Shown: positions 7,063-60,401 of the stretch, piece after piece
How positions within the stretch are numbered: the stretch's first letter is position 1
Layout: each line of letters opens with the position of its first letter
Assembly: GCA_964392305.1 (NCBI GenBank)
Contig: CAYMPV010000029.1
Location: 3,171-67,170, forward strand
Direction of reading: 5' to 3'
Length of the DNA stretch: 64,000 bases
Source: an uncultured candidatus Brocadiaceae bacterium
Lineage (GTDB): Bacteria; Planctomycetota; UBA1135; UBA2386
Position numbers and translations under genes: made by a program
The notes under the pieces: model-generated
What the model saw: the letters and a program-made list of their open reading frames with translations, nothing else
What the model was told of the DNA's origin: nothing
Databases searched by the model: none

Positions 7063-8412
7063 ATGGTCGACCTCCGGCAGACGTTCGATGGGCGGGGTGT
7101 GCCCCAGAATCTCGAGGCAGAGCGCTCCGTGCTGGGCGCGCTGCTGCTGCATTCCGACGCCGTCGCCGACGTGACGTTCCTCAAGGCCGAGGACTTCTAC
7201 CTGCCGCGGCACCAGCTGATCTTCGAATCGATCATCGAGACGTTCAATCGCAAGAACGCCACCGACCCGATCGCGGTCGGCGAGCAGTTGCAGCGCATGG
7301 GGCGGTTCGACGAGGTGGGTGGGCATCCGCAGCTGCTCGACCTGATGGAGAGCGTGGTCACGGCCGCAGGTGTCCTGCACCACGCCGAGATCGTGCGCGA
7401 GAAGGCGATCAGCCGGCGCCTGCTCGAGACCTGCCTGGACGTGGCCCGGCGCGCCTACCAGAACGAGGAGGAGGCCAAGACCCTGCTCGACGAGGCCGAG
7501 CGGCAGATCTTCGAGATCTCGCGCATGGACAAGAGCGGCGAGGCGATCAGCATCAGCGACGTGCTGCAGTCGACCTTCGAACGCATCGACCGGCTGCGTG
7601 AACGCGAAGGCCGCCTCACCGGCCTGGGCACCGATTACTACGACTTCGACGACATGACCGGGGGCCTGCAGCCCGGGGAACTGATCATCGTCGCGGCGCG
7701 CCCGTCGATGGGCAAGACGAGCTTCGCGCTCAACCTCACCGAACGCGTCGCCAATCACCGCGCCGCGGTGGCGTTCTTCTCGCTCGAAATGTCGAACCAG
7801 CAGGTGATCCAGAACATGCTGTGCTGCCGCTCGCAGATCGACGGTCAGGCGATGCGCAAGGGTCGGATCACGGACCAGCAGTACCGGCGGCTGCAGGAGG
7901 AGGCGGCGCGGCTCTACGAGGTGCCGATCTACGTCGACGACACGCCGGGTCTGTCGATCACACAACTGCGCGCCAAGTGCCGGCGCCTCAAGCAGAAGCA
8001 CGGCATCGACATGGTCGTGGTCGACTACCTGCAGCTGATGTCCGCGGGTGGCCGCGTCGAGAGCCGTCAGCAGGAGATCTCGACGATCTCGCGCGGTCTG
8101 AAAGGCATCGCGCGCGAGCTGTCGGTGCCCGTGATCGCGCTCTCGCAGCTCAACCGCGACGTCGAGAACCGCGACGATCACCGGCCGCGCATGAGCGACC
8201 TGCGTGAGTCGGGTGCGATCGAACAGGACGCGGACGTGATCATCCTGCTGCACCGCGACGAGTACTTCAAACCGACCGAGCAGAACGCCGGTCTCGCCCA
8301 GATCATCATCGCCAAGCAACGCAACGGCCCGACCGGCGAGGTCGTGCTGCGCTTCTTTCGCGAGTACATGCGCTTCGAGAACTTCACGCGTCGCGCCGAG
8401 CCGATGCAGTGA
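7063..8412 (+). CDS. dnaB: replicative DNA helicase DnaB
   Basis: Internal ATG at 7063 gives MVDLRQTFDGRGVPQNLEAERSVLGALLL, a typical DnaB N-terminus. PSMGKTSFALN (Walker A), VVVDYLQLM, EISRGLKGIARELSVPVIALSQLNR and IIAKQRNGPTG follow. No intein. Confidence 0.95.
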   Translation: MVDLRQTFDGRGVPQNLEAERSVLGALLLHSDAVADVTFLKAEDFYLPRHQLIFESIIETFNRKNATDPIAVGEQLQRMGRFDEVGGHPQLLDLMESVVTAAGVLHHAEIVREKAISRRLLETCLDVARRAYQNEEEAKTLLDEAERQIFEISRMDKSGEAISISDVLQSTFERIDRLREREGRLTGLGTDYYDFDDMTGGLQPGELIIVAARPSMGKTSFALNLTERVANHRAAVAFFSLEMSNQQVIQNMLCCRSQIDGQAMRKGRITDQQYRRLQEEAARLYEVPIYVDDTPGLSITQLRAKCRRLKQKHGIDMVVVDYLQLMSAGGRVESRQQEISTISRGLKGIARELSVPVIALSQLNRDVENRDDHRPRMSDLRESGAIEQDADVIILLHRDEYFKPTEQNAGLAQIIIAKQRNGPTGEVVLRFFREYMRFENFTRRAEPMQ

Positions 8413-8509
8413 GCCGGAGCAATGACGTGACTCCACAGGTTGACGCAAGACCGGTTGCAGCGAGTCAGGTCGACCAGACGCCACGGGCCGTTGTCGTGAG
8501 CCGACCATC

Positions 8510-11167
8510 GTGAACAAACAGCTTGCGGCCTTGATGCTGTGCCAGCTCGCCGCCGCGGCCGCGGTCCTGCGTGCGCAGCAGGAGCCGCCGGCGAAACAGG
8601 ACCCGTCCGCCCAGGGTGTGCCAGGCGCGCGCGTCGACACCCAGGGCGAAGTGCAACTCGACGACGCCGTTCGGGCCTTGCAGGGGCGCACGGTGCGCTC
8701 GATCCAGTTCGCTCGTGCGGAGGGGCGCGGTGACCCCAAGATGCTCGACGAGGCGGCGAGCGAGCCGTTGGTGCGCAGCCTGATGACCCGGGTCGGGCAG
8801 CCGTTCGAGGCTCGTAAGGTCACCAACGACTGCACCAACCTGTGGGAGGAGCGGCGGCTGGTGGTCAGTGCCTACGCGCTCGCCGTCGACGCCGACGTGC
8901 AGATCACCTACGTCGTCGAGCAGGAGGTCGAGGTCTACTCGTCGATCGACTTCAAGGGGCTCGACAAGCTCGACCGGCGCACCGTCAACGATCTGCTCGG
9001 CATCGACGTCGGCCGGCAGGTCACCGCCACCGAGTCGCAGGCGATGCGCAAGGTGCTGTTGGCCCGCTACGCGCGCGACGGCTTCCCCTTCGCGAGCATC
9101 GACCTCGTGGTGCAGCCGGTGCCGGCGCCGCCGTCGGGCGTGGTGCCGGGCGCGCGCGCCGACAAGTCGCTGTTGTTCCGCATCGACGAAGGCCCGCGCG
9201 TCACCGTGCGTTCGCTCGAGTTCTTCGGCAACCACTCGTTTCCGGGTGAGCCGCCGTTGGGCTTCCTGGGCACCTCCGACTACCTGGCGCGCGACGCGCG
9301 CATCCAGAGCGATCCGGCGTGGGGCCTGGTCAGCGGTGGCTACTACAGCCGCGAGATCCTGGACGAGGACCTCGACCGCCTGCGGTTGTTCTACCGCAGC
9401 CGCGGGTTCCTCGACGCCACCGTCGACGTCGCCGACGTGCGCTACAGCGACGACCGCACCAAGGTGGACATCAAGCTGGTGATCGACGAGGGCGTGCGTT
9501 ACCGGATCAAGTCGGTGCGCATCGAGCATCTCGACGAGGAAGGCGCGCCGATCGCCGGTGCCCCGCTCTACTCGCCCGAAGTGATCGCCAAGGAGCTCAA
9601 GGTGCAGCCCGGCGAGTTCTACGACTTCGGGCGGCTGCAACGCGATTGGCTGGCGATCCAGGAGTTCTACGGCGAACGTGGTCACCCGCCGTCGTCGTTC
9701 CCGGGCATGATCGACGTCTCCAAGCCGTGTCGCGTGATCTGGCCGGCGAAGGAGATCTACGCCGACGGCGCCGAGGTCGAGGTCGTCTTCCAGGTGATCG
9801 AGGGCTTGCCGAAGAAGCTGCAGGACGTGGTGATCCGCGGCAACCGGTTCACGCGCGACCCCGTGATCCGGCGCCGCATCCGAGTCTTGCCGGGTGAACG
9901 CATCGACATGCGCGAGGTGCAGCGGTCGCTGCGCAACCTCGAACAGACGCGCTACTTCCAGGATCCGGTGACGCTGCGCGGGCCGCGTATGCAACTCGAG
10001 CCCGTCGCCGGCGGGTCGGAAGACTTCGTCAACCTGGGGGTCGACCTCGCCGATGCTCCGACCGGCGAACTGCGCTGGGGCGTGGGCATCAGCACGGGCC
10101 AGGGCGCGCAGGCGTCGTTGACGTTCAACAAGCGCAACTTCGACCTGTGGGACCCGCCGAGCACCTGGAACCCCGGCGACGCGATCGGCGAGGTGCTCGA
10201 CAACGAAGCGTTCCACGGCGGTGGTCAGACGTTCGCGATGTTGTTGGCCCCCGGCAGCAAGTACAGCCAGTTTCGCGTCAGCTGGACCGAGCCCGACATC
10301 TTCAACGAGCACTTCGAAACCCACGAGCTGCGCGTCGCTGGCGAACGCCTGATCCGGCGCCTGCCCGACGGATACACCTCCGACACGCTGCAGGGTGAGG
10401 TCGGTCTGTCGCGTTACTTCACCGACGAGTTCAACGTCGGCGTGTCGGTGCGGGACTCGTCCGTCGAGATCAAGGACCTCGCGCCCGATGCGACCTCGAT
10501 CGCCTACGACGCCGAGGGCACCACCGAACTGCGCGGTATCCGCCTGGGTGCGCGATACCGCGACTTCGACGACTTCCGTCGCCCCTCCAAGGGCTTCGAG
10601 GCGTCGGTCTCGGTCGAGTTGATCGGCGGCTTCCTCGGTGGCGAGGAAGACATGGTCAAGTTCGACCACGCGATGCACATCTACCTGCCGATCCGCGAGA
10701 ACGAGATGGGGCACCGCACCGTGCTGCACCTCGAGCACCGCTTCGGTCTGGGCGATCCGTTCGGCAGCAGCAACGACGTGTTCCTGACCGAACGTTTCTA
10801 CATGGGCGGCGCCAATCTGCGCGGTTTCGACTACCGGCGCGCCGGGCCGAGCCAGTTCGGGCGGCCGTTCGGCGGCGAGGCCATCTACACGGCCACGGCC
10901 GAGATCTACGTGCCCCTGGTGGCGACGCGTCTCGACGGTGAGGTCCGCGACCGCGAACTGTTGCGCGGGGTCGTGTTCACCGACATCGGCCTGCTCGGTC
11001 TGTCGATCGAGGATCCGACCTTCCGCGAACTGCGCGGCAGCTGGGGCGTCGGCCTGCGCATCGAGGTGCCGGTGCTGGAGCTGCCGATCGCGCTCGACGT
11101 CGGCTGGCCCTGGGCGTACGAAGAGACCGACGATCGTCGTCAGTTCTACTTCTCGATCGCCCGTTGA
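8510..11167 (+). CDS. bamA: outer membrane protein assembly factor BamA (POTRA repeats plus Omp85 barrel)
   Basis: GTG start and signal peptide ending LRAQQ. Repeated POTRA-like segments (e.g. IRGNRFTRDPVIRRRIRVLPGERIDM). C-terminal barrel with FYMGGANLRGFDY, ending QFYFSIAR. Confidence 0.9.
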   Translation: MNKQLAALMLCQLAAAAAVLRAQQEPPAKQDPSAQGVPGARVDTQGEVQLDDAVRALQGRTVRSIQFARAEGRGDPKMLDEAASEPLVRSLMTRVGQPFEARKVTNDCTNLWEERRLVVSAYALAVDADVQITYVVEQEVEVYSSIDFKGLDKLDRRTVNDLLGIDVGRQVTATESQAMRKVLLARYARDGFPFASIDLVVQPVPAPPSGVVPGARADKSLLFRIDEGPRVTVRSLEFFGNHSFPGEPPLGFLGTSDYLARDARIQSDPAWGLVSGGYYSREILDEDLDRLRLFYRSRGFLDATVDVADVRYSDDRTKVDIKLVIDEGVRYRIKSVRIEHLDEEGAPIAGAPLYSPEVIAKELKVQPGEFYDFGRLQRDWLAIQEFYGERGHPPSSFPGMIDVSKPCRVIWPAKEIYADGAEVEVVFQVIEGLPKKLQDVVIRGNRFTRDPVIRRRIRVLPGERIDMREVQRSLRNLEQTRYFQDPVTLRGPRMQLEPVAGGSEDFVNLGVDLADAPTGELRWGVGISTGQGAQASLTFNKRNFDLWDPPSTWNPGDAIGEVLDNEAFHGGGQTFAMLLAPGSKYSQFRVSWTEPDIFNEHFETHELRVAGERLIRRLPDGYTSDTLQGEVGLSRYFTDEFNVGVSVRDSSVEIKDLAPDATSIAYDAEGTTELRGIRLGARYRDFDDFRRPSKGFEASVSVELIGGFLGGEEDMVKFDHAMHIYLPIRENEMGHRTVLHLEHRFGLGDPFGSSNDVFLTERFYMGGANLRGFDYRRAGPSQFGRPFGGEAIYTATAEIYVPLVATRLDGEVRDRELLRGVVFTDIGLLGLSIEDPTFRELRGSWGVGLRIEVPVLELPIALDVGWPWAYEETDDRRQFYFSIAR

Positions 11168-48089: not shown

Positions 48090-48593
48090 ATGGCCATGGC
48101 CAAGCAGGGCAAGTCCAACAGCGCCGCCAAGCCCTCCGGCAAGAACGACCAGCCCGAGGTCCTGATCGGCGACAACCGCAAGGCGCGGTTCCGCTACGAG
48201 ATCCTCGAGACCGTCGAAGCCGGGCTGGTGCTGCGCGGCACCGAGGTCAAGGTGCTGCGCCAGGGGCACATCAGCCTCGACGAGGCCTACGCGCGCGTCG
48301 AGGTCGACGCGATCTGGCTGATCGGCGCCAACATCCCCGAATACAGCCACGGCAACCTGCAGAACCACGAGCCCAAGCGCAAGCGCAAGTGCCTGCTGCA
48401 CCGCAAGGAGGTGCGCAAGCTGCGCGTGCTGACCCAGCAGCAGGGGCTGACGCTGGTGCCGCTGCGCGTCTACTTCGGCAGCCGCGGTTTCGCCAAGGTC
48501 ACGATCGGCGTCGGCAAGGGCCGCAAGACGCACGACAAGCGTGAGCACCTCAAGGCCAAGGATGCCAAGCGCGAGATCCGCGAGTCGCGCTGA
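48090..48593 (+). CDS. smpB: SsrA-binding protein SmpB
   Basis: NRKARFRYEILETVEAGLVLRGTEVK, PEYSHGN, EPKRKRKCLLHRKEVRKL, GLTLVPLRVYF, GKGRKTHDKRE. Confidence 0.95.
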   Translation: MAMAKQGKSNSAAKPSGKNDQPEVLIGDNRKARFRYEILETVEAGLVLRGTEVKVLRQGHISLDEAYARVEVDAIWLIGANIPEYSHGNLQNHEPKRKRKCLLHRKEVRKLRVLTQQQGLTLVPLRVYFGSRGFAKVTIGVGKGRKTHDKREHLKAKDAKREIRESR

Positions 48594-50338: not shown

Positions 50339-50992
50339 CTAGTCGTCAGCCGGCCTGGCCAGGGCACGCAACTTGACGACGAGTTCGCGTCGGAACGCAT
50401 CCAGTTCGGCTGCGGTCACGCCGGGTAGTCGGACCTCGTCGCCGATGCGCAGTTCGTCGAGGATCCATGCCAGGGTGCCCGCTGCGACGCCTCCGTCCTT
50501 GCGTTCGGCATCGGCCAGGATGCTGCTCAACTCCATTCCTTGCAGCAGGATCATGCGCAGATCGATCAGATCCCTGATCTCCGCGCGACCGAGCAGAGCA
50601 CAGACCTTGTTGGCTGCGATCTCGCGCAAGGAGTGCATGCGGATCCCGTCGGCGCTCTCCACGACCGTGTCGACCTCCGGCGCGCGGTCGATGACGAGAT
50701 CGACCACGGCCGACTCGTCCCCGCGTTGCACCATGAAGCGGTGGAACTCCGGATGGGAACGCAGCGAATGTAGCGTCCCGCCAACGGCCGCAGCGGCGCC
50801 CACGAGTGCGAGATGTCCTTCCTCGAGCGTCACTGGCGGTTTGGAGAACAGGTCGAGGTCATCGCTGGTCCGGTGTTGGAGGTGATAACCGACGAGGGCG
50901 CCACCGCCGGTCAGGACGAAACGACGTTCCCGCGCGAAGAACTCACGCAGCAGATCGGCTTGCAGCCGACTAAGTCCGGGGTAGGAGTCCAT
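50339..50992 (-). CDS. AbiEii/AbiGii-like nucleotidyltransferase (DUF1814-type putative toxin)
   Basis: ATG at 50992. FVLTGGGALVGYHLQHRTSDDLDLFS (NTase GS..DxD-like core), then IAANKVCALLGRAEIRDLIDL. Confidence 0.7.
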   Translation of the reverse strand: MDSYPGLSRLQADLLREFFARERRFVLTGGGALVGYHLQHRTSDDLDLFSKPPVTLEEGHLALVGAAAAVGGTLHSLRSHPEFHRFMVQRGDESAVVDLVIDRAPEVDTVVESADGIRMHSLREIAANKVCALLGRAEIRDLIDLRMILLQGMELSSILADAERKDGGVAAGTLAWILDELRIGDEVRLPGVTAAELDAFRRELVVKLRALARPADD

Positions 50993-51272
50993 CGATGCGC
51001 CATCCTTCGATGATCCAATGCCAGAACTTCCGCGACCTGCCGAGGTGACGATCGATGCGTGGCAGCAGTTCGAGCACGTCACGCAGTCGGAGCAGCTTCC
51101 ACACGTCTTGATAACGTGCTTCGCGCATCACGCGGCCCATCCACAACGCACGCTCGTCCAGGTCCGGTGAGGCGAGCTTCTGCCGCAATTCGGCGAACGT
51201 CACGTCCTCACTCCACAGGAAGTAGGGGCGCGCGTCGGGGTCGTCAAGGTTGGTGGACAGGGGTTTGTCCAT
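50970..51272 (-). CDS. small protein upstream of and overlapping the AbiEii-like gene (putative cognate antitoxin); family not recognised
   Basis: ATG at 51272 gives MDKPLSTNLDDPDARPYFLWSEDVTFAELRQKL..RSRKFWHWIIEGW. 23-nt overlap with the downstream gene. It is not an AbiEi-type wHTH as far as I can tell. Confidence 0.5.
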   Translation of the reverse strand: MDKPLSTNLDDPDARPYFLWSEDVTFAELRQKLASPDLDERALWMGRVMREARYQDVWKLLRLRDVLELLPRIDRHLGRSRKFWHWIIEGWRIDGLLPRT

Positions 51273-51722
51273 GGTGCGAGTCTCACCCCGGTTCGGGGGA
51301 CTGGGTTTCATGGTAGACACTCTCGGCCATTATCGGCTCGAGAGGGGGTTTGGCCATTTCGGATCGGTTCCTTCCCGAAGAGGCCAGTCGCCGCGACCGA
51401 TCGCCTTGTCGTGGCGAGCAGCTGTCGTCGCGCGCAAGTGGGCAGCGCGGCCTGCTCGCGGCAGATCCCGCATGCCATGGCCGGGGCGCGACGCGCTGCC
51501 GAGTTCGCACGCGACATCATGCTGACCGCTGATGACGGTGAGTGTCGTGCACGACGTGCTGTCGGGTCAGGCGGTGAGCGGCATCGGCATGCAGTTCGCG
51601 TTTGTCGGCGAGTTCGTGTTTCGCGAAGACCATCATCGCCGCGCGCTGCGTAACGGAGGCCACGGTTGCGGAGCGTGTCCCTTGCATCGAGCGCGGACAG
51701 GTCGCTGTCGACCGCAATCACG

Positions 51723-51792
51723 CGACGACATTCCGACGACGACATTCCGACGACGACATCGAGAAGGCGACACTCCGAAGGGCGACATGAAA
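51723..51792 (+). repeat. five tandem 14-bp direct repeats running into the start codon of the next gene
   Basis: Units: CGACGACATTCCGA (51723), CGACGACATTCCGA (51737), CGACGACATCGAGA (51751), AGGCGACACTCCGA (51765), AGGGCGACATGAAA (51779). The last unit contains the ATG at 51787. Confidence 0.85.
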
Positions 51793-53643
51793 GGGCAAGT
51801 ACTGGCAGCGAAGTTCGTGTGGTTGTTTCTCCTGACTGCGTCACTCCTGGTCGCAGCGGCGTTGCCGGCGCAGCAACTGCACGTCACCAACTTCAGCAGT
51901 ACGACGCGGTTCGAAGGTTGGATCCGGCGCGGCATCGACTGGTCGCCGGCTGCGCCGCGCGGCGCGGTGCAAGGCAACGCATTCGCCGTCGGCCGCGACC
52001 TCGGCATCGGCACGCGGGTGCTCGACGTGCACGTGCATCTCGCACCCGGCGCCAACCTCACGCTCGACTTCACGCAGCTCGATCCCAATCCGCCGGCCGG
52101 GCCGGCGGCGCCGTTCGTGGTGCCGTCGCCGACGATCGCCGGGGTGCCGTTCGTGCTGCGCTCTGCGCACGCCGACGGCGCGGGGCTCGACGTGCACTGG
52201 CGAACGCGCCTCGGCGACCTCGTCGTCGACCTGTGGTGCGTGCTCTATCCGGGGCAGACGTGGACCGCAGGCGAACTGCAGGTGACCGCTCACGGCCCGG
52301 CGCGCACGGCCACCGTTCCGGCCGGCATGGTGCTGCGCGGCGGCGGCGGTTTCGCCGTGTGCTCGCCGGGCGCGCCGAACGGCAGCGAGATCATTCCCGC
52401 CGGCACGACGATCGCCGCGGGACAGGGCTTCTCGACCTTGCCGGTCCTGTTGACCTCGATCAGCGGTGACCTCGAGTCGGCTGCCGTCGCCGGCCACCAC
52501 GCGTTGGGTGCCGTCGGCCTGCGCAACGTGTGGCCCATCGGCAATCCCTCGTGGCGCGCGTCGCGCGGTTCGCCGCTGGCATGGACCGCCGACAACTACG
52601 CCCGCACGCGCGCCAATCTGCGGGGCTGGAACGCCGATCCGCTCGGTGTGCGCGCCAACGCCAATACGTCGGGTGGCGAGGGCGACCAGGTGTTCGTCGG
52701 CGCCGAGTGTGGTCGCGGTGCGTCGAGCGCCGGCGCCGAACTGCCCAATCTGTTCGTCGCCTACGGCTACGCGCGGCGGCCGGGCAAGTGGCGTGAAGCG
52801 AACGGCGACGGGCTGTCGCCGTCCACGCATCAGGGGCTGGCGATGTTCGAGGCCTACCCCTTCGAGCGCGGCGGCACCCAGGAGATGCTCGGCCTCGCCG
52901 AGCTTCCCGATCGCGCCGACACGCACGACTGGTGGGAGTGGCGTGAGCACTGGTTCCGCAACCGGCTGTTCGTCTCCTATCGCCTGACGGGATCCTTGGC
53001 GCTGCAGTGGCAGATCGACCAGCTGGCGCGGCAGTATCTCTACGAACACACGCTCGACCCGGGCTTCAGCACCACCACCTACACCGGCGCGCTGCGTGGC
53101 TACGGCTGGTCCTCGCTGATGGTCTGGTGGTTGCACCACACGCTCGAGGACCGGCAACTCGCGAGCACCGTGCGCACGCGTTGGCTGACCCGCTGGCGCA
53201 CGATCGTCGCGCCGCGTTACGCCGGCACCGACTACTGGGACGTCCGACGCGACGACCGCCTCGGGCCGGGCCTGCAATGGCTCGCCTACCAGCAGGCCGC
53301 CGCGGTCATGTTCCTCGACATGGCCGGCCAGGTCTGTGATGCGCCCGATGCGCGCGATGCCGCGCTGCAGGGCGCGCTCGCCGTCGTCGATCGGGCGTTC
53401 ACCTACAACGGCCAGCGTTGGGTCGGCTACGGCTGGGTGCAGATGGCGGGCGGTGCACCGATGTCGCTGCCCGCGGGCGGCACCTTCGGCCCCGGCATCG
53501 AGTCGTGGATGACCGGCGCGGTCACAGTCGTGTTGCGGCGGCTGCCGCAGCATCAGGTGGCGCGCTGGATCCTGGACCAGTTCGTCGTCGAGAACAACGT
53601 CAACGGGCAGTGGATCGCGCCGGACGTGTTGCCGCCGCAGTAG
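51787..53643 (+). CDS. secreted hypothetical protein (618 aa), Trp-rich C-terminal half; no family recognised
   Basis: ATG at 51787 gives MKGQVLAAKFVWLFLLTASLLVAAALPAQQ. The C-terminal half has THDWWEWREHWFRNRLF, GYGWSSLMVWWLHHTLE and RTRWLTRWRT. Codon usage looks native (high GC3). Confidence 0.65.
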   Translation: MKGQVLAAKFVWLFLLTASLLVAAALPAQQLHVTNFSSTTRFEGWIRRGIDWSPAAPRGAVQGNAFAVGRDLGIGTRVLDVHVHLAPGANLTLDFTQLDPNPPAGPAAPFVVPSPTIAGVPFVLRSAHADGAGLDVHWRTRLGDLVVDLWCVLYPGQTWTAGELQVTAHGPARTATVPAGMVLRGGGGFAVCSPGAPNGSEIIPAGTTIAAGQGFSTLPVLLTSISGDLESAAVAGHHALGAVGLRNVWPIGNPSWRASRGSPLAWTADNYARTRANLRGWNADPLGVRANANTSGGEGDQVFVGAECGRGASSAGAELPNLFVAYGYARRPGKWREANGDGLSPSTHQGLAMFEAYPFERGGTQEMLGLAELPDRADTHDWWEWREHWFRNRLFVSYRLTGSLALQWQIDQLARQYLYEHTLDPGFSTTTYTGALRGYGWSSLMVWWLHHTLEDRQLASTVRTRWLTRWRTIVAPRYAGTDYWDVRRDDRLGPGLQWLAYQQAAAVMFLDMAGQVCDAPDARDAALQGALAVVDRAFTYNGQRWVGYGWVQMAGGAPMSLPAGGTFGPGIESWMTGAVTVVLRRLPQHQVARWILDQFVVENNVNGQWIAPDVLPPQ

Positions 53644-53649
53644 GTCGGT

Positions 53650-54317
53650 TTGGGCTTCGGCAGGTGTAGCGGTGCCGGCGAACGGCGACCCTTCCTCGTT
53701 CTCGGCATCGAACTCGAGTTCACCGCGCAGCATCGAGTAGAGCCGCTGGATCGTCGTGATGACGACCTTCGTCGAGGCTCCGATGGTCTGCGTCGTCAGG
53801 CGCTGGACGTTGTAGAATTCGGTGAACTTGCGGTTGTCGTCCGGCGACCTGACGCCCTGGAACTCTTTCTCCGCCTGCTCGCCGAGGTTGGTGCGGTCGA
53901 CGAGGAAACGCACACGCCGGGCACCGTCGAACCTGATCAGCCGGTAGGTCGCCGAGACGGCGGTGATCGTCTTGCCCGGGCCGGCCGCCATCTGCACGAG
54001 CGCAGCGGCCGGTTGTCGCGGAACGAGCGATCGAGGTTGGTGATCGCCCGGATCTGGTTGGGGTAGAGGCTGCCTTTGTGCAGGTCCGGCATTGCGCGCA
54101 GGGTCGAGGGTCTCTAGTCGTTGGCGGTATTGTGGGTGCCGGTCGCCTGCACCCAGCGGTGAAGCGTGTCGGCCTTGAGCCACTCGGCCAAGGTCTCGGG
54201 CTGGTGCAGCGCGAACACCTCGCGCGTGCGCGTGTCCGGGTCGAAGCCGGCGGTGCGCAGGTTGCCGTCGATCGTCTGGCGAGCTTGCTGCTCTGGGGTG
54301 AGGCCGGATGGGGACAT
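53650..54317 (-). pseudogene. decayed, 3'-truncated SF2 helicase / restriction-enzyme R-subunit-like gene
   Basis: The N-terminal frame runs MSPSGLTPEQQARQTIDGNLRTAGF..FALHQPETLAEWL to an in-frame TAG at 54114-54116. The same frame then continues LRAMPDLHKGSLYPNQIRAITNLDRSFRDNRP. A 1-nt frameshift near 54003-54010 leads to ALVQMAAGPGKTITAV (Walker A), RFLVDRTNLGEQAEKEF and ITTIQRLYSMLRG. Homology stops at about 220 aa, where such proteins usually run to 800 aa or more. Confidence 0.65.
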
Positions 54318-54487
54318 GCGCGTGGGAGAAGGAGCGCCTCCCAAGCCAGCGGTCATCGGCCCGCCAGGGTGGTTCCCATCGGCGGAATGATGCAGCGACC
54401 GTAAACGTTTGCGCTACGAATTGTTGACGGTCGGCGACCTGGTCGGGCGGCCGAAGCGGCGGCGGCGCCTCGGCTTGTCGCGATCGA

Positions 54488-55228
54488 CTACGCTTGCTCG
54501 ACGAGTTCGCCGCCACGGCCGGCGGGCATCTCGTTCCAAGTTCGGCCGTCGAGCTCGCGCCCCGTTTTGGCCTTGTTCACCCCGCCCCACTGCTTGAAGA
54601 AGAAGGGCACGTGTGCGCGCCGGCACTGGTTGCGGATCACTCGGACCCACTCCGGCTCCATCGGCCGCGCACCGTGGCCCGACTCACCGCCGACGATCGC
54701 CCAGTGGATGCCGTCGAGATTCAGCGACGGCAGTTGCCCGATCAGCGGCTCCAGCGACAGGAAGCGAACGGCCGCCGGCACCTGCCGCAGCTCGTCGATG
54801 CGCCACGCGACGTCTTCGTTCTCGACGCTGACGCCCATCCACACGTTGTCCGGCCACGGCAGGTCGCCAGCGATCTCGCGCAAGCGGTCGGCGCGCTTCG
54901 TGAGCACTTGGAAGGTGTGGTTTGAAGCGCGCTCCATCACGGTGAAAACGCGCTGGATGTACTCGGTGGGCACCTTCACGTGGAACAGGTCGCTCATCGA
55001 GTTCACGAAGACGAGCTTCGGCTTCTTCCAGCTCAACGGCAGGTCGAGCATGTGCTCCTGCAACGTGACCCGGAAGCCGTTGCGGTAGTTCGGCTGGCCC
55101 ATCGCCTGCAACCGGACCGCCATGCGCTCGGCGTAGCAGTTCTTGCAGCCCTGGCTGATCTTGGTGCACCCGGTCACCGGGTTCCAAGTCGCGTTCGTCC
55201 ATTCGATCGAGGAGCCTGCACCCATCAC
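54488..55228 (-). CDS. Gp37/Gp68 family protein (PF07505 / DUF5131), three-Cys motif
   Basis: [78 protein letters not shown]. Confidence 0.85.
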
Positions 55229-56355
55229 GTCACCTTCGGGAAGATTGCGACCACGTCGTCGGCGAAGCCCTTCTTGGACTTCCGTCCGTCCGTCTGGATC
55301 TTGCCTTCGTCCTCCAGGGCGCGGAGCACGTCCCTGTAGTTCTTCGCAGTGTAGGGGCGATCGACGCTGTGCGCCTCGTAGATCTGCCGCATGGTCGCGC
55401 GCCTTCCGGAGTACGCCTTCAACAGCATGTCGCGCAGGTCATCGAGCGGGCGGCTCAGGTTGAACAGCAACTGCTGCCTCGAACTGGCGGCCGGGAAGTA
55501 GGAGAGCGAGGCGACTCCTTGGTTCGACTCGGCGCTGGCCTTCGCCATCACATCCTTCATCACTCCGTAACCACGGAAGTGCTTCGTGACGAAGACCAAG
55601 TGGTGCGTCGTTCGCTTGTCCTCGCCCGACTTGAAGCAGAACGGCAGGACGAACGGAGCCACGTTCTTGCTGGCACCGTACTCCTTCAACGCCCTGGCGA
55701 GCGCTTCGACGATCGCCGCTTCACGCTCCGACGGATCAAGCTGCTCCAGCTCGGTCTTCAGCGACGCAGCTCGCTCGGATCCGAACAGCGCCTCCATGTG
55801 CTTCTGCACCATCGGGTTCGTCAGGCCCATGTTGATGCGCTGGTAGTTGAAGAACACGATGCAGTCGCACCCCCAGTCCTTCAGAAACGCCTGGATCAGC
55901 CGCAGCGACAGGCCCTTGTAGCCCCACGGATCGATGAAGGCCAAGACCGGGATCGTGCGCATCGTCTCCCACTGCTTCGCAATCTCGTCGCCGATCTCCT
56001 TGCTGTCGACGACGGGTTGGTGCTTCAGCTTCGCGATGTCCGGCAGCTTGGCGATCTCGTCCTTCAGGTTGTTCGCGTTCGAGAGTTCCTTGTCGTTGAA
56101 GAACGTCAGCAGACGATCCCGGTAGATCGGGTTCGCGATGGCCTTCTCCAGGACCATCAGCGGCGTCGACTTTGCGCCGTCCTTGTAGCGACCCGGGCCG
56201 GAGAACAAGTCGATGTAGGCGATCCGCTGGTCAGCACGCGGGTTCCGCTTCTGCGCGCTCGTGATGATCGTCGCCCAGGCGTCGAAGTACTTGGCGACGA
56301 TCTCGGCCTTCACCAGCGACTGCTCCCGCTGCTCGTCGAAGAAGTTCTCGACCAT
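55225..56355 (-). CDS. tcmP: three-Cys-motif partner protein TcmP (TIGR04474-like)
   Basis: ATG at 56355 gives [95 protein letters not shown] overlap with the DUF5131 gene. Family assignment is from memory of the motifs. Confidence 0.75.
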
Positions 56356-57033
56356 CCCGTTCCCGATTCCTGGCGCCGCACGCCGTAGAACGTCTAGCTT
56401 CGCGGTGCCGAACCACCGACACACGCACCTGCCGACATTCTGACCCGGCAGCGACTCGGACTCCAGGAGGCAGTTACTCGCAGCGAGTTGGGGTGGCGAG
56501 TCAAAGGCCGGCGGCCCACGAAGAGAGGCGGAGCCGTGCTGGGCGTCCGACTTGCCGACCTGATTGCCGAGCGTGATGCGAAGGTGACAGTGGGCAACCC
56601 GCTCGACCGGCCTCGCGACCATCCCATGTTGGATCCGACGCCCGTCGATTCGACAGGCCCGAGGTCATGGCCGCGATGCGTGCCGAAGCCGCGACCGATG
56701 CGGCACGAGCGTTGGTCGTGACCGCCGCAGGCGCAAAGAGCATGGCCAAGCATCTCGCGAAGGAATGGCCGCTTGCGGCTCGACGTGATCGATGCTCATC
56801 GCCGGTGCCTCGACCTGCACGCTATGCGACGTCAGCGGCGACACTGAGAGCTGATGCGCAAGGGCGCGTTGGGGGCGATCTCGCGGCAGACCTGTTCCGG
56901 CGGGTGGGCGCGAGAGTGCAGGCAACAGCTAACGAACTGGGAGCGAACTCAACCGAACGAGACGAAGCGAGAAACGTCCCGAGGCGGAAAACCGATGCAA
57001 GCTGAACGCGCGCACGACGATGCGGGACGAAAC

Positions 57034-57068: not shown

Positions 57069-57421
57069 TGGTGGAGGCGGCGGGAATCGAACCCGCGTCC
57101 CGAGATGCTCCGTCCTGGGCCTCTACGCGCGTAGTCCGTCGTTTGGTGTCGCCGCCAGTGCTCCGACGAACAGGATCACCGGCGGCCAGCTCGACGTTGT
57201 CTCGCCGCGGGCAGGCCGAGCAGCCACCCAACGACCAGCCTGCTGTGTGTCGCCTTGGCCTCCCGCAGGCGAGGAGACCTCGGCGCTCGATACCTAGTTC
57301 TTAGGCAGCGAGGGAGTAGTGCGTGTTGGCACTTGAGTTTTTCCGGTGGGATTTACGAGGTCCCCGGCCCTCGGCGCGCCACCCAGGTCGAGTCGGCATC
57401 CGGTCGAAGCCGATCGCCCCC
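57069..57421 (-). ncRNA. ssrA: tmRNA (ssrA), tag peptide ANTHYSLAA
   Basis: The reverse complement starts GGGGGCGATCGGCTTCGACCGG and ends GGACGCGGGTTCGATTCCCGCCGCCTCCACCA. The acceptor stem carries a G3:U pair. The tag ORF GCC AAC ACG CAC TAC TCC CTC GCT GCC TAA lies at 57301-57330. Confidence 0.9.
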
Positions 57422-59282: not shown

Positions 59283-60401
59283 ATGTCTGTGCAGCCACGC
59301 TACCTCGTTCCCCAGGTCCTGGCCGATCTGCAGCGCAAGATGGTGTTCGTCGCCGGGCCGCGTCAGGTCGGCAAGACGACGCTGTCGATGGCGCTACCCG
59401 GTGCCGCGGCGGGTTACCGCAACTGGGACGTCGTTGCCCATCGTACGCAGCTGTTGGCCGACGAACTGCCGGTCGCAGACCTGTGGATCTTCGACGAGAT
59501 CCACAAGTACCATCGCTGGCGCAACTGGCTGAAAGGCTTGTGGGACGGCCGTCGTAAGGGCCAGCAGATCCTGGTGACGGGCAGCGCTCGACTCGACTAC
59601 TACCGTCGTGCAGGAGACTCGCTGCAGGGGCGTTATCACCTGTTGCGCTTGCACCCGCTCTCGTTTGCCGAACTCGGCATGTCCACGCCGGAGCAACTGG
59701 CGCAGCTGGTGACCCTGGGCGGCTTTCCCGAACCCTTCCTGAGCGGCTCGGAACGGCAGGCGCGTCGCTGGTCGCGTGAGTACCGGACGCGGCTCGTGCG
59801 CGACGAGGTCATCGACCTCGAACGTGTGCAGGACATCGGCGGCCTCGAGCTGTTGATGCAGCGACTGCCCGACCTGGTCGGATCCCCGCTGTCCGTCAAT
59901 GGGCTGCGTGAGGATTTGCAGATCGCGCACAAGACCATGTCGCGATGGCTCGACATCCTCGAACGCTTCTACGCCATCTTCCGGTTGTCGCCATTCGGGT
60001 CGACCAAGATCAGGGCGATCAAGAAGGCCAACAAGCACTACCACTGGGATTGGTCGCTGGTGTCCGCGCCTGGCCCCCGGTTCGAGAACGTCGTCGGCAG
60101 TCACCTGCTCAAGTGGGTGCATTGGCAGCAGGATGTCGAGGGCCGCGATCTCGATCTGCGCTACTTCCGCGACACCGATGGCCGCGAAGTCGACTTCGTC
60201 GTGATCGAGGGCAAGAAGCCGGTGTTGATGGTCGAGTGCAAACTCGGCGACGATGGGCTCGACAAGAGCCTGCGATACCTGCGCGAGCGCTTTCCCGCTG
60301 CCGCCGCGTGGCAGGTTTCGCTGCATGGCGCGAAGGACTACGTGTCGCCCGAGGGCATCCGAGTCGCGCCTGCGGGCAAGCTGCTGGCGACCTTGGTCTG
60401 A
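59283..60401 (+). CDS. AAA-family ATPase with DUF4143 C-terminal domain (AAA_14 type)
   Basis: ATG at 59283. VAGPRQVGKTT (Walker A), LWIFDEIHKY (Walker B), LVTGSARLD, LQGRYHLLRLHPLSFAE. C-terminal RYFRDTDGREVDFVV..VECK (restriction-endonuclease-like fold typical of DUF4143). The upstream 60 nt are noticeably AT-richer. Confidence 0.85.
   Translation: MSVQPRYLVPQVLADLQRKMVFVAGPRQVGKTTLSMALPGAAAGYRNWDVVAHRTQLLADELPVADLWIFDEIHKYHRWRNWLKGLWDGRRKGQQILVTGSARLDYYRRAGDSLQGRYHLLRLHPLSFAELGMSTPEQLAQLVTLGGFPEPFLSGSERQARRWSREYRTRLVRDEVIDLERVQDIGGLELLMQRLPDLVGSPLSVNGLREDLQIAHKTMSRWLDILERFYAIFRLSPFGSTKIRAIKKANKHYHWDWSLVSAPGPRFENVVGSHLLKWVHWQQDVEGRDLDLRYFRDTDGREVDFVVIEGKKPVLMVECKLGDDGLDKSLRYLRERFPAAAAWQVSLHGAKDYVSPEGIRVAPAGKLLATLV

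Follow-up and report, generated by a model that had tools for sequence, protein, structure and literature searches.

Genes and features at the locus

Two adjoining genes on the minus strand of the window (the whole stretch of 64,000 nucleotides that was analysed), tcmP and duf5131, lie between ssrA and a remnant of hsdR (Table 1). Their positions, and every motif quoted from their translations, agree with those given in an earlier, sequence-only reading of this DNA. The family assignments made there also held. The 246-aa product matched the Pfam HMM PF07505 with an E-value of 4.1e-105 (351.1 bits; gathering cut-off, 28.9) over profile positions 2-243 of 243, and the 376-aa product matched the NCBIfam HMM TIGR04474 with an E-value of 2.1e-56 (191.8 bits; curated cut-off, 53) over profile positions 1-262 of 263. 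The C-terminus of TcmP was further matched by PF22560 (GMT-wHTH; E 2.7e-18); a tie of this family name to Gamma-Mobile-Trio elements was considered.

Table 1. Features of the tcmP-duf5131 locus (positions in the window)
Feature	Position	Strand	Description
tcmP	55225..56355	-	376 aa; predicted class I methyltransferase-like domain (residues ~45-260) and C-terminal winged helix-turn-helix (wHTH; residues 292-359)
duf5131 (Gp37/Gp68)	54488..55225	-	putative radical-SAM-like enzyme, 245 aa; 246 aa with the GTG start at 55228
ssrA (tmRNA)	57069..57421	-	ARAGORN; Rfam RF00023, 171 bits; neighbouring landmark outside the cassette
hsdR pseudogene	53674..54317	-	remnant of a type I restriction endonuclease/helicase subunit; spans residues 1-314 of a protein of 948 aa
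5' leader of the cassette	56356..56490	-	conserved; contains the short palindrome CGGTGgtccggCACCG, also conserved

The start of tcmP was placed at Met90 of a 465-aa stop-to-start ORF, the start that is also used by 30 homologues. An ATGA overlap had been read at 55225-55228; the junction in fact reads GTGATG, with the TGA stop of tcmP at 55227-55225. Translation of duf5131 may thus begin at the ATG at 55225-55223 (245 aa, the length of close homologues, with a 1-nt overlap) or at the GTG at 55228-55226 (246 aa, with a GTGA overlap). The leader upstream of tcmP probably holds the promoter and ribosome-binding site of the cassette, and a scan of it detected no sigma-70 consensus promoter. Terminator-like sites were no commoner than in shuffled sequence, and tmRNA was the sole match in an Rfam search.

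Cys21, Cys28 and Cys31 of DUF5131 (CX6CX2C) were invariant across 32 sequences, as was its GGESG motif. The dN/dS ratio was 0.13 for tcmP (against locus L006) and 0.07 for duf5131. Both genes are real, intact and under purifying selection. The pair is a typical member of the TcmP/DUF5131 'three-Cys-motif protein and partner' family, from which no difference was found, with 52-67% (TcmP) and 50-96% (DUF5131) identity to copies in other phyla.

Relation to PADLOC candidate systems

Both component HMMs of PADLOC PDC-M30 matched the adjacent, co-oriented genes of the window (TcmP with PDC-M30A, E 1.6e-28; DUF5131 with PDC-M30B, E about 9e-117). DUF5131 also matched PDC-M41B (E about 2.4e-122), and PDC-M41A, a shorter TcmP-like protein, matched the TcmP of the window weakly (E 1e-6). 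PDC-M30 and PDC-M41 were described as 'guilt-by-embedding' phage defence candidates; the cassettes used to define such systems lie inside BREX, DISARM and type I restriction-modification (R-M) loci (Payne et al., bioRxiv 10.1101/2024.01.29.577857). Close relatives occupy a type I R-M locus, as in the logic of that discovery. The window cassette shows no structural difference from PDC-M30; what sets it apart is the destroyed R-M system at its side. In a P. aeruginosa diversity panel, PDC-M30 was reportedly carried by 32 of 100 strains, 68.8% of them in resistant classes, which is a correlation only (PMC10855318).

The locus is an ordinary member of an already catalogued, widespread candidate phage-defence family, PDC-M30: one more copy of a cassette whose family has neither a known function nor a solved structure. 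The pair had been described beforehand as an uncharacterised candidate module whose two families lack an experimentally established function. The latter part stands, as no experimental function for TcmP or DUF5131 was found in the literature or the PDB, no functional study was found under DUF5131, TcmP, PF07505, TIGR04474, Gp37/Gp68, PDC-M30 or PDC-M41, and no published test of phage protection by PDC-M30 was found; the module was, on the other hand, already catalogued. As a literature term, 'TcmP' retrieves mostly unrelated acronyms.

Predicted folds and conserved motifs

Sequence and profile searches of TcmP and DUF5131 against the PDB gave nothing meaningful, and fold comparison alone was informative; the fold matches of the pair are remote (TM 0.35-0.5, <15% identity). 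The AF2 model of TcmP (pLDDT 83) has the seven-stranded topology of class I methyltransferases, with a beta6-beta7 hairpin (strands at residues 45-49, 82-87, 115-117, 137-141, 164-170, 235-242 and 248-257). When this model was compared with the PDB using Foldseek, all 22 matches at E <= 1e-3 were SAM methyltransferases, as were all significant matches but one in BFVD. The best PDB folds were Trm1 (3axs), RlmJ (7p9o, 6qe5) and DUF519 (2oo3), with E-values of 4e-5 to 1e-4, and fibrillarin was also among the structural neighbours.

Motif I (D49-L-F-x-G53-P-G55), motif II (F86-N-D88) and motif IV (D142-P-W-G-Y146) of TcmP varied little or not at all among 31 sequences. In the model each of them follows the expected strand. 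Conservation was 86-93% in the motif regions versus 61-68% for residues 91-135, residues 181-232 and the wHTH. TcmP shares with Trm1 (tRNA m2,2G26) and RlmJ (23S rRNA m6A2030) the same predicted topology, the motif I G-loop, an acidic residue after beta2 and a D-P-aromatic-G/Y motif IV after beta4; Trm1 has DPFG and RlmJ a DPxY-type motif. Identity to these enzymes is, however, about 10% (TM 0.35-0.47), with no sequence or profile match, and TcmP is set apart from them by a 60-residue helical insertion, the wHTH, the conserved motifs WGCDC and HHL and the radical-SAM-like protein that is its obligatory neighbour. On the strength of the model, TcmP appears to be a class I SAM-dependent methyltransferase-like protein that would bind SAM and may transfer methyl groups.

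For the AF2 model of DUF5131 (pLDDT 86), the best PDB fold found by Foldseek was spore photoproduct lyase (TMq 0.51, probability 1.0, E 2e-3, 13% identity), and LIAS and MiaB were the next radical-SAM entries. The likeness to spore photoproduct lyase and to radical-SAM enzymes lies in a partial beta/alpha barrel and, near the N-terminus, a loop with three Cys that follows the first strand; spore photoproduct lyase is the longer protein, by about 100 residues. The canonical radical-SAM motif CX3CX2C is absent, the motif being CX6CX2C. DUF5131 was not matched by PF04055 at E <= 0.01, and its match to TIGR04471 (rSAM_mob_pairA) was sub-threshold (87.6 bits; cut-off, 355). At RadicalSAM.org, DUF5131 forms megacluster 5-2, beside spore photoproduct lyase in 5-3 (PMC9477430). 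DUF5131 is modelled as a spore-photoproduct-lyase-like, radical-SAM-like enzyme, for which a [4Fe-4S] cluster and reductive cleavage of SAM would be expected.

The ssrA setting and base composition

The 3' end of tmRNA, a gene outside the cassette, had been estimated to lie about 0.7 kb away and is 713 bp from the start of tcmP. The tag peptide encoded by ssrA is ANTHYSLAA. The GC content across the pair (0.61-0.66) is below that of the window (0.69), so that the lower-GC islet described earlier is present in overall composition. Contrary to what had also been said, its codons are not less GC-saturated than those around it: GC3 is 0.907 for duf5131 and 0.902 for tcmP, versus 0.83-0.96 (median 0.89) for flanking genes, and the sole low value (0.75) is that of an AbiEii pair. 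The dip lies wholly in codon positions 1 and 2 and is therefore due to amino-acid composition. Codon usage was rejected as an argument for recent acquisition, GC3 being at the level of the flanks.

The sequence-only reading had pointed to the tmRNA 3' end as a classic integration site of islands; an island integrated there cannot be demonstrated. No second copy of the ssrA 3' end was found in the window with up to 3 mismatches allowed, and no significant direct repeats were found. ORFs in the 713-bp spacer gave no Pfam match and no integrase remnant, and the integrase of locus L009 has no homologue in the window. Among 60 other loci, a tRNA gene lies within 10 kb in only four and a tmRNA gene in none; adjacency to ssrA is unique to the window locus among those surveyed.

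The hsdR remnant

A decayed SF2 helicase gene had been noted directly downstream on the same strand, and it proved to be a pseudogene. In tblastn with the intact HsdR of L006 as query, the match covers residues 1-25 and is then broken by an in-frame deletion of 285 bp at 54244/54245. Further on come an in-frame stop near 54114 and a frameshift near 54004, and homology is lost after 53674. Over residues 205-314 of the intact protein the remnant shows 85% identity, and the ResIII, hsdR and PRK11448 HMMs match it at the motif I region only. It belongs to the EcoEI-like HsdR family of type I R-M systems, and the locus of the intact protein also encodes HsdS and HsdM. The close relatives L006 and L009 carry such an intact, canonical system (hsdR-hsdS-x-hsdM), with a gap of about 165 bp between duf5131 and hsdR; in the window, hsdR is deleted in part, interrupted, frameshifted and truncated, and homologues of hsdS and hsdM are absent. 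Of the 80 loci surveyed besides the window, only 2 have a homologue of the L006 hsdR at a distance of up to 10 kb from the pair. The helicase remnant is a neighbour from an ordinary type I R-M system and not a third component of the cassette.

Distribution, pairing and neighbourhoods

The recurrent adjacency of the two families, as stated in the sequence-only reading, was confirmed: in a survey of 80 loci that represent more than 15 phyla, DUF5131 adjoins TcmP in 76, with the genes on the same strand, in reversed order or convergent. At least 481 matches were obtained in 185,579 species genomes scanned, a patchy and mobile distribution, and TcmP forms 4,140 clusters at 50% identity. The family ranges over bacteria, archaea and temperate phages; in Gordonia temperate phages the pair sits between the immunity repressor and the integrase. 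Among phage records, DUF5131 occurs in 180 and TcmP of the window's subfamily in five (Gordonia), which suggests that DUF5131 may work without TcmP. The same TcmP subfamily was found in 10 of 2.9 million viral contigs (IMG/VR); with these 10 contigs and five records, a phage origin of the subfamily as a general rule is unsupported.

Trees of TcmP and DUF5131 were correlated (mirror-tree r = 0.45, Mantel p = 0.001), and the two are co-inherited, with shuffling. No fusion of TcmP to a nuclease or to DUF5131 was found among the top 150 representatives. The sites that the cassette occupies in L001, L009 and the window are unrelated, which attests to its mobility, and decayed copies occur in L001, L018 and L059. 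A putative circular element of 12.3 kb, 12,302 bp in length, carries both the cassette and a type I R-M system that is complete.

Within two genes of the pair, 268 neighbour ORFs contained ResIII (11), DEAD (8), phage integrase (8), N6_N4 methylase (7), HTH_3 (5), M78 peptidase (4), PIN (3) and Uma2 (3) families. On these raw counts, and in a qualitative sense only, integrases, DNA methylases, restriction helicases and toxins are over-represented around the pair. A defence or mobile-element context, proposed earlier as a check, was seen in the flavour of these ORFs, but several pairs stand alone among housekeeping genes, which counts against a defence reading. Co-occurrence with SF2 helicases, proposed alongside it, failed as a rule: ResIII accounts for the 11 ORFs above, and most pairs have no helicase nearby.

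Replacement and duplication of tcmP

When the window was compared with L009, dS was 0.97 for tcmP and amino-acid identity 67%, versus 0.16 and 96% for duf5131, and both flanks are 83-100% identical. The leader has 83-90% nucleotide identity, and adjoining tcmP just about 70%. Positive selection was rejected as the source of the divergence of tcmP, since dS itself is six times that of duf5131; the divergence is instead due to recombination. The tcmP allele has been replaced between near-identical flanks. In four loci a single DUF5131 is accompanied by two paralogues of TcmP, and a further arrangement, two full pairs, was seen in two loci. From these comparisons TcmP would be the exchangeable partner, DUF5131 being much more conserved.

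Discussion

Our favoured reading, which we hold to be probable rather than assured, is that the intact, translationally coupled TcmP-DUF5131 cassette of PDC-M30 type is a SAM-dependent, two-enzyme nucleic-acid-modification module acting in conflicts among mobile elements, phages and hosts. The cassette would have survived in a decayed defence islet beside ssrA, with its former type I R-M neighbour reduced to an hsdR stub. The two proteins would form a complex and act together on nucleic acid, most likely DNA. TcmP may recognize the target by means of its variable regions and its C-terminal wHTH, and provide a base-binding methyltransferase pocket of the Trm1/RlmJ type (motif I DLFSGPG, motif II FND, motif IV DPWGY); DUF5131, with its CX6CX2C cluster motif, may then modify the base so presented by radical chemistry. 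The product would be a candidate defence or self-marking modification. The hypothesis is in this way narrowed to a methyltransferase-fold specificity subunit and a radical-SAM enzyme resembling spore photoproduct lyase. A sharper version is possible, if on the unlikely side: a nuclease-free, sequence-specific modification system of a new kind, in which an exchangeable TcmP (wHTH and base-flipping pocket) presents a DNA base to a radical-SAM DUF5131 that installs an undescribed modification, alleles or paralogues of TcmP being swapped to change specificity, like HsdS.

No nuclease or other effector was found to be consistently linked to the pair, so that defence by a modification-only pair is hard to explain. 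The remoteness of the fold matches, the non-canonical CX6CX2C motif without a PF04055 match, the many phage records of DUF5131 beside the few of this TcmP, the pairs among housekeeping genes and the decayed copies also count against the favoured reading. The lack of an effector nuclease would suit a module by which mobile elements counter defence or mark themselves, and which modifies its own or host DNA to escape restriction (orphan hypermodification) and does not attack invaders. The presence of the pair on mobile elements, including the Gordonia phages and the 12.3-kb putative circular element, the frequency of DUF5131 in phage genomes and the proximity of R-M systems, whose specificity the pair could complement, are consistent with this. 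The Gordonia pair, however, sits in the lysogeny/immunity region, where prophage-expressed defence genes of actinophages usually sit, the viral contigs with this TcmP subfamily are as few as given above, and most copies are chromosomal; we judge escape from restriction as the sole role rather improbable. Joining TcmP, DUF5131 and the downstream SF2 helicase into one three-component modification-plus-effector system, with the helicase or nuclease arm decayed, as had been hypothesized, is very unlikely. The order tcmP-duf5131-hsdR is kept on one strand in the window, L005/L006 and L009, ResIII/DEAD helicases are the commonest neighbour family, and in S. meliloti a TcmP gene adjoins, and is induced together with, the defence gene for the Hna helicase (PMC12445080). 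Against this, the helicase of the relatives is a complete HsdR with its own HsdS and HsdM, a self-sufficient type I R-M system set apart by the gap before hsdR; its homologue is near so few other loci, a helicase is lacking within two ORFs of most pairs, some pairs are alone among housekeeping genes, and both genes are still under purifying selection in the window despite the destroyed hsdR.

The closest folds of TcmP, RlmJ and Trm1, belong to RNA methyltransferases, and RNA is therefore a live alternative substrate. The pair would then modify tRNA, rRNA or tmRNA, with TcmP as an RNA base methyltransferase of the RlmJ/Trm1 type and DUF5131 as an RNA-directed radical-SAM enzyme like RlmN, Cfr or MiaB. 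Fibrillarin, also an RNA methyltransferase, among the neighbours of TcmP, MiaB among the fold matches of DUF5131, and the label 'RNA methyltransferase' given to DUF5131 in some phage records fit such an activity. We nevertheless consider it unlikely, since the best DUF5131 match is a DNA-repair enzyme, TcmP has a wHTH and variable regions of the kind typical for proteins that recognize DNA targets, the pair is patchily distributed and mobile with R-M-type neighbours, and adjacency to ssrA is confined to the window locus. The likeness to spore photoproduct lyase, together with the adjacent megaclusters and one phage record that labels the DUF5131 gene as spore photoproduct lyase, would also suit a DNA-repair lyase reversing a lesion or adduct in a maintenance role, with TcmP as damage-recognition or regulatory partner. 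That match is remote (13% identity, TM 0.5), however, the invariant methyltransferase motifs of TcmP point to an enzyme and not a sensor, the replacement and duplication of TcmP resemble specificity diversification, and the context consists mostly of mobile-element and defence genes; a repair function is very unlikely.

The favoured modification module can be likened, by analogy only, to Dnd/Ssp phosphorothioation and Dpd 7-deazaguanine systems, which are multi-enzyme, mobile and island-borne and modify base or backbone. To our knowledge they share no homologous components with TcmP-DUF5131. Dnd/Ssp and Dpd systems include restriction partners, whereas none is linked to this pair. A new radical-SAM-dependent modification of DNA or RNA, if found, would be of importance to epigenetics, to the biology of phages and their hosts and to enzyme chemistry. 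New here are the tcmP allele replacement, the loci with one DUF5131 and two TcmP proteins, and the compact 12.3-kb putative circular element with the cassette, each of which offers a natural experiment.

The gene pair in the window

Two overlapping minus-strand ORFs lie in the window where the sequence-only reading had placed them, and every motif that it had quoted was recovered from their translations. Both products were matched, well above the cut-offs, by profiles of the two families that it had proposed, TcmP (three-Cys-motif partner protein) and DUF5131 (Gp37/Gp68). A Pfam search identified TcmP residues 292-359 as a C-terminal 'GMT-like wHTH' domain (PF22560). The tcmP reading begins at Met90 of a longer open frame, the same methionine being the start in 30 homologues. 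The junction of the two genes is GTGATG, with the tcmP stop codon TGA at 55227-55225, and not the ATGA overlap described earlier; the genes are nevertheless translationally coupled. The start of duf5131 is most likely the ATG at 55225-55223, since it gives 245 aa, the length of close homologues; the GTG at 55228 is an alternative. The palindrome upstream of tcmP is identical in L009, a Planctomycetota MAG, and keeps 14 of 16 positions in contig L006, where the stem is weakened; it may serve the wHTH protein as an operator, or form a small hairpin.

Features of the locus and its surroundings, by position in the window
Feature	Position	Strand	Remarks
smpB	48090-48593	+	8.5 kb from ssrA, convergent
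AbiEii-type nucleotidyltransferase toxin gene	50339-51320	-	PF08843, E 2e-14
618-aa ORF	51787-53643	+	N-terminal signal-like hydrophobic segment; no Pfam match; GC3 0.885, host-like
hsdR pseudogene	54317 to 53674	-	Met at 54317; residues 1-25 kept
duf5131	54488-55228	-	Full-length DUF5131/Gp37-Gp68; PF07505, E 4.1e-105, 351 bits (cut-off 28.9)
tcmP	55225-56355	-	Full-length, 376 aa; TIGR04474, E 2.1e-56, 191.8 bits (cut-off 53)
Palindrome CGGTGgtccggCACCG	56385-56400	-	About 35 nt upstream of the tcmP start
tmRNA gene (ssrA)	57069-57421	-	713 bp from the tcmP start
AAA_14/DUF4143 ATPase gene	59283-60401	+	PADLOC candidate PDC-S01, E 4e-50; far side of ssrA

The pair had also been described as having less GC-saturated codons than its surroundings. 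Overall GC does dip (0.61-0.65 across the pair vs 0.69 for the window), but GC3 shows no dip (0.907 and 0.902; flanking genes 0.83-0.96, median 0.89). The dip is confined to codon positions 1 and 2, and so stems from the amino acids of which these two strongly conserved proteins consist. A GC/GC3 profile without a dip had been named beforehand as grounds for refutation, and on its GC3 half the result went against the earlier reading. The observation otherwise stood, apart from this codon claim and the overlap detail.

Pairing and neighbourhood across genomes

The TcmP subfamily gave at least 481 confirmed matches among 185,579 genomes, and 80 loci encoding it were surveyed from species-representative genomes (Planctomycetota, Myxococcota, Desulfobacterota, Cyanobacteria, Chloroflexota, Gammaproteobacteria, Bacteroidota, Acidobacteriota and others). 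The recurrent adjacency of the two families was borne out, DUF5131 adjoining tcmP in 76/80 loci. It usually follows tcmP on the same strand after a gap of 5-25 bp, sometimes lies upstream, and is convergent with tcmP in cyanobacterial loci; pairing kept through such changes of gene order is good evidence of a functional link. The wider TcmP family forms 4,140 clusters at 50% identity (E <= 1e-3), nearly all ~370 aa long; the top 150 include no fusion.

Pfam scans of the neighbours covered the two nearest ORFs on either side, 268 in all from 76 loci. ResIII (11), DEAD (8), phage integrase (8), N6_N4 DNA methylase (7), HTH_3 (5), M78 peptidase (4), PIN (3), Uma2 (3) and HerA, Eco57I, MmeI and SNF2 (2 each) were found, together with plain housekeeping genes; at single loci the pair lies beside an alpha-2-macroglobulin/PBP1C operon or sialic-acid genes. 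The context is thus MGE- and defence-flavoured, as had been expected.

Distant TcmP members occur on actinobacterial and haloarchaeal plasmids. The bona fide pair is carried by Gordonia temperate phages between the immunity repressor and the integrase, the usual place of prophage-expressed defence genes; in phage ThankyouJordi, genes 41 and 42 are convergent and encode TcmP (annotated 'methyltransferase') and a DUF5131 protein 56% identical to that of the window. DUF5131 without TcmP is much commoner in phages (180 records). Contigs L005 (1-12281) and L006 (1-11233), from JGI 3300048597 and Logan SRR29362564, which may be one dataset, are 100% identical circular permutations that jointly close a putative 12,302-bp circle. 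It encodes tcmP, duf5131, a complete type I R-M system (hsdR, hsdS, a 229-aa ORF, hsdM), a HIRAN protein, an HTH_3/M78 peptidase protein and small ORFs. Neither a replication gene nor an integrase gene was recognised on the circle, perhaps a small plasmid or else an excised element of defence genes only.

The decayed hsdR gene

The decay that had been read in the downstream helicase gene was mapped by tblastn with the intact HsdR of a relative. Most of the N-terminal nuclease domain has been lost to an in-frame deletion of 285 bp at 54244/54245, beyond which come an in-frame stop (near 54114) and a frameshift (near 54004). The stretch with helicase motif I, residues 205-314, is still 85% identical to the relative; residues 315-948 are missing, and homology stops at 53674. 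This end point is met, in convergent orientation, by the 3' end of the 618-aa ORF, which marks the rearrangement that removed the remaining R-M locus; no homologue of hsdS or hsdM was found in the window.

The earlier proposal was a three-component modification-plus-effector system whose helicase arm had decayed. At the same position the closest relatives carry a complete type I system: L005 and L006 have tcmP-duf5131-hsdR(948 aa)-hsdS-x-hsdM, and L009 likewise has one next to the pair; there a tyrosine integrase is encoded 1.7 kb upstream of tcmP, and a TIR gene lies downstream. By this comparison the window helicase belonged to a type I R-M system that was ordinary and self-sufficient. Only 2/80 loci have an L006 HsdR homologue within 10 kb of the pair, and with ResIII in 11 of the 268 neighbour ORFs, restriction-type helicases are frequent yet optional neighbours. 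No effector nuclease is consistently linked to the pair. The families, synteny, context and decayed helicase of that interpretation were upheld; its third component was not, nor was its argument for an ssrA island.

On the circle, a small ORF directly upstream of tcmP (L006 438-830; L005 7143-7502) resembles the N-terminal ~110 residues of HsdR, with 53% identity to the HsdR of locus L012. The resemblance suggests that an hsdR 5' end was either the insertion site of the cassette or its partner in a recombination.

Evolution and mobility of the pair

The dN/dS values against L006 (tcmP 0.13, duf5131 0.07) show purifying selection on both genes, and hence a core that stayed functional though the adjacent hsdR was wrecked. 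Between the window and L009, identity is 83-90% over the 135 bp upstream of tcmP, only 56-85% in tcmP (window 55228-56355, L009 10001-11113; 67% aa, dS 0.97) and 92-100% in duf5131 from its first codon (96% aa, dS 0.16), and it stays at ~90% into hsdR. Such a mosaic, low in tcmP and high on both sides, means that tcmP alone was swapped for a divergent allele. No other of the 2,701 locus pairs is as discordant. TcmP and DUF5131 distances over 74 loci were only moderately correlated (r = 0.45, Mantel p = 0.001), the strongest outlier in that comparison being the window/L012 pair.

In four gammaproteobacterial MAG loci (L025, L027, L032 and L033, about 7900-11100) one DUF5131 is followed by two TcmP paralogues, the second matching TIGR04474 at 242.8 bits; L022 and L038 each hold two complete pairs within about 5 kb. 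Frameshifts interrupt tcmP in L018 (9896-11113) and duf5131 in L059 (11112-11958). In L001 (9460-10738; Planctomycetota UBA2386) an internal 548-bp deletion leaves tcmP as a 178-aa wHTH-only ORF, while duf5131 is still open and 90% identical, amid housekeeping genes.

The cassette occupies unrelated chromosomal positions in L001 and L009, which shows its mobility directly; homology of the window to relatives is restricted to 53652-56490. Integration at ssrA had been inferred from a distance of about 0.7 kb, which the measured spacing confirmed. In the window there is no second copy of the ssrA 3' end, no direct repeat of note and no integrase, and the ORFs of the spacer have no Pfam match. A tRNA gene of any kind lies within 10 kb in 4/60 loci and a tmRNA gene in none of the 60, so that the ssrA adjacency is peculiar to this locus, with only a remnant of an island here, if that.

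Predicted structures and candidate function

TcmP was modelled with AF2 from a 31-sequence alignment (pLDDT 83, pTM 0.81). The model shows the seven-stranded class I methyltransferase topology, in which ~60 helical residues are inserted between strands beta5 and beta6, and a wHTH follows at the C-terminus. The significant PDB fold matches, 22 in all, are SAM methyltransferases without exception, the best being Trm1, RlmJ and a DUF519 protein (E 4e-5 to 1.4e-4, TM 0.35-0.47); BFVD matches agree, a chromo-domain protein being the sole significant non-methyltransferase annotation. Invariant residues (D49-L-F-x-G-P-G55 after beta1, F86-N-D88 after beta2, D142-P-W-G-Y146 after beta4) coincide with the expected motif sites, the last having the amino-methyltransferase motif IV form. 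Conservation is 86-93% in the motif regions and 61-68% in residues 91-135, 181-232 and the wHTH.

The DUF5131 model (pLDDT 86, pTM 0.85) is a partial beta/alpha barrel with an invariant C21-x6-C28-x2-C31 loop after the first strand. Its best PDB fold is spore photoproduct lyase (TMq 0.51, probability 1.0, E 2e-3), a radical-SAM enzyme acting on DNA, with lipoyl synthase and MiaB lower in the list. With matches this remote and a non-canonical Cys spacing, radical-SAM chemistry is inferred rather than shown. RadicalSAM.org assigns DUF5131 to the radical SAM superfamily as megacluster 5-2, with spore photoproduct lyase in the adjacent 5-3 (PMC9477430).

The pair would most likely act as a stoichiometric two-enzyme SAM-dependent module. 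TcmP would be the variable, exchangeable subunit, using its wHTH and variable regions for target recognition and holding a base in a Trm1/RlmJ-type pocket, and the highly conserved DUF5131 would perform radical chemistry on the base so held. As substrate DNA is the likelier, in view of the wHTH, the R-M neighbourhood and the resemblance to spore photoproduct lyase; RNA is a real alternative, the closest folds of TcmP being RNA methyltransferases. Defence, self-marking and anti-restriction are candidate outcomes, among which sequence alone does not choose.

PADLOC models PDC-M30A/B, and M41B, match the pair. PDC are 145 candidate systems predicted by 'guilt-by-embedding', their source being cassettes of genes that lie inside BREX, DISARM and type I R-M loci (bioRxiv 10.1101/2024.01.29.577857). 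PDC-M30 was reported in 32/100 P. aeruginosa strains, where its association with phage resistance is weak and correlative (PMC10855318), and was absent from the set tested in a later study of candidates (PMC12881386). The Hna helicase defence gene of S. meliloti has a TcmP gene beside it (PMC12445080). For neither family did the literature or the PDB yield a functional or structural study. The locus is an ordinary member of a known, uncharacterised candidate family, and its interest lies in that family-level question and in the leads found here.

Surroundings of ssrA

The gene for SmpB, the protein partner of tmRNA, lies 8.5 kb from ssrA. Between them are DJ-1/PfpI, GerE and DUF2231 genes and defence remnants (annotation from the twin assembly L103). 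The AAA_14/DUF4143 ATPase gene has a GC of 0.64 and a GC3 of 0.83; one published test of a PDC-S01 representative saw no protection from T4, T5 or T7 (PMC12881386). The AbiEii-type toxin gene, whose codon usage (GC3 0.75) stands out clearly as the most atypical nearby, is overlapped by an upstream ORF of 113-116 aa that may encode its antitoxin.
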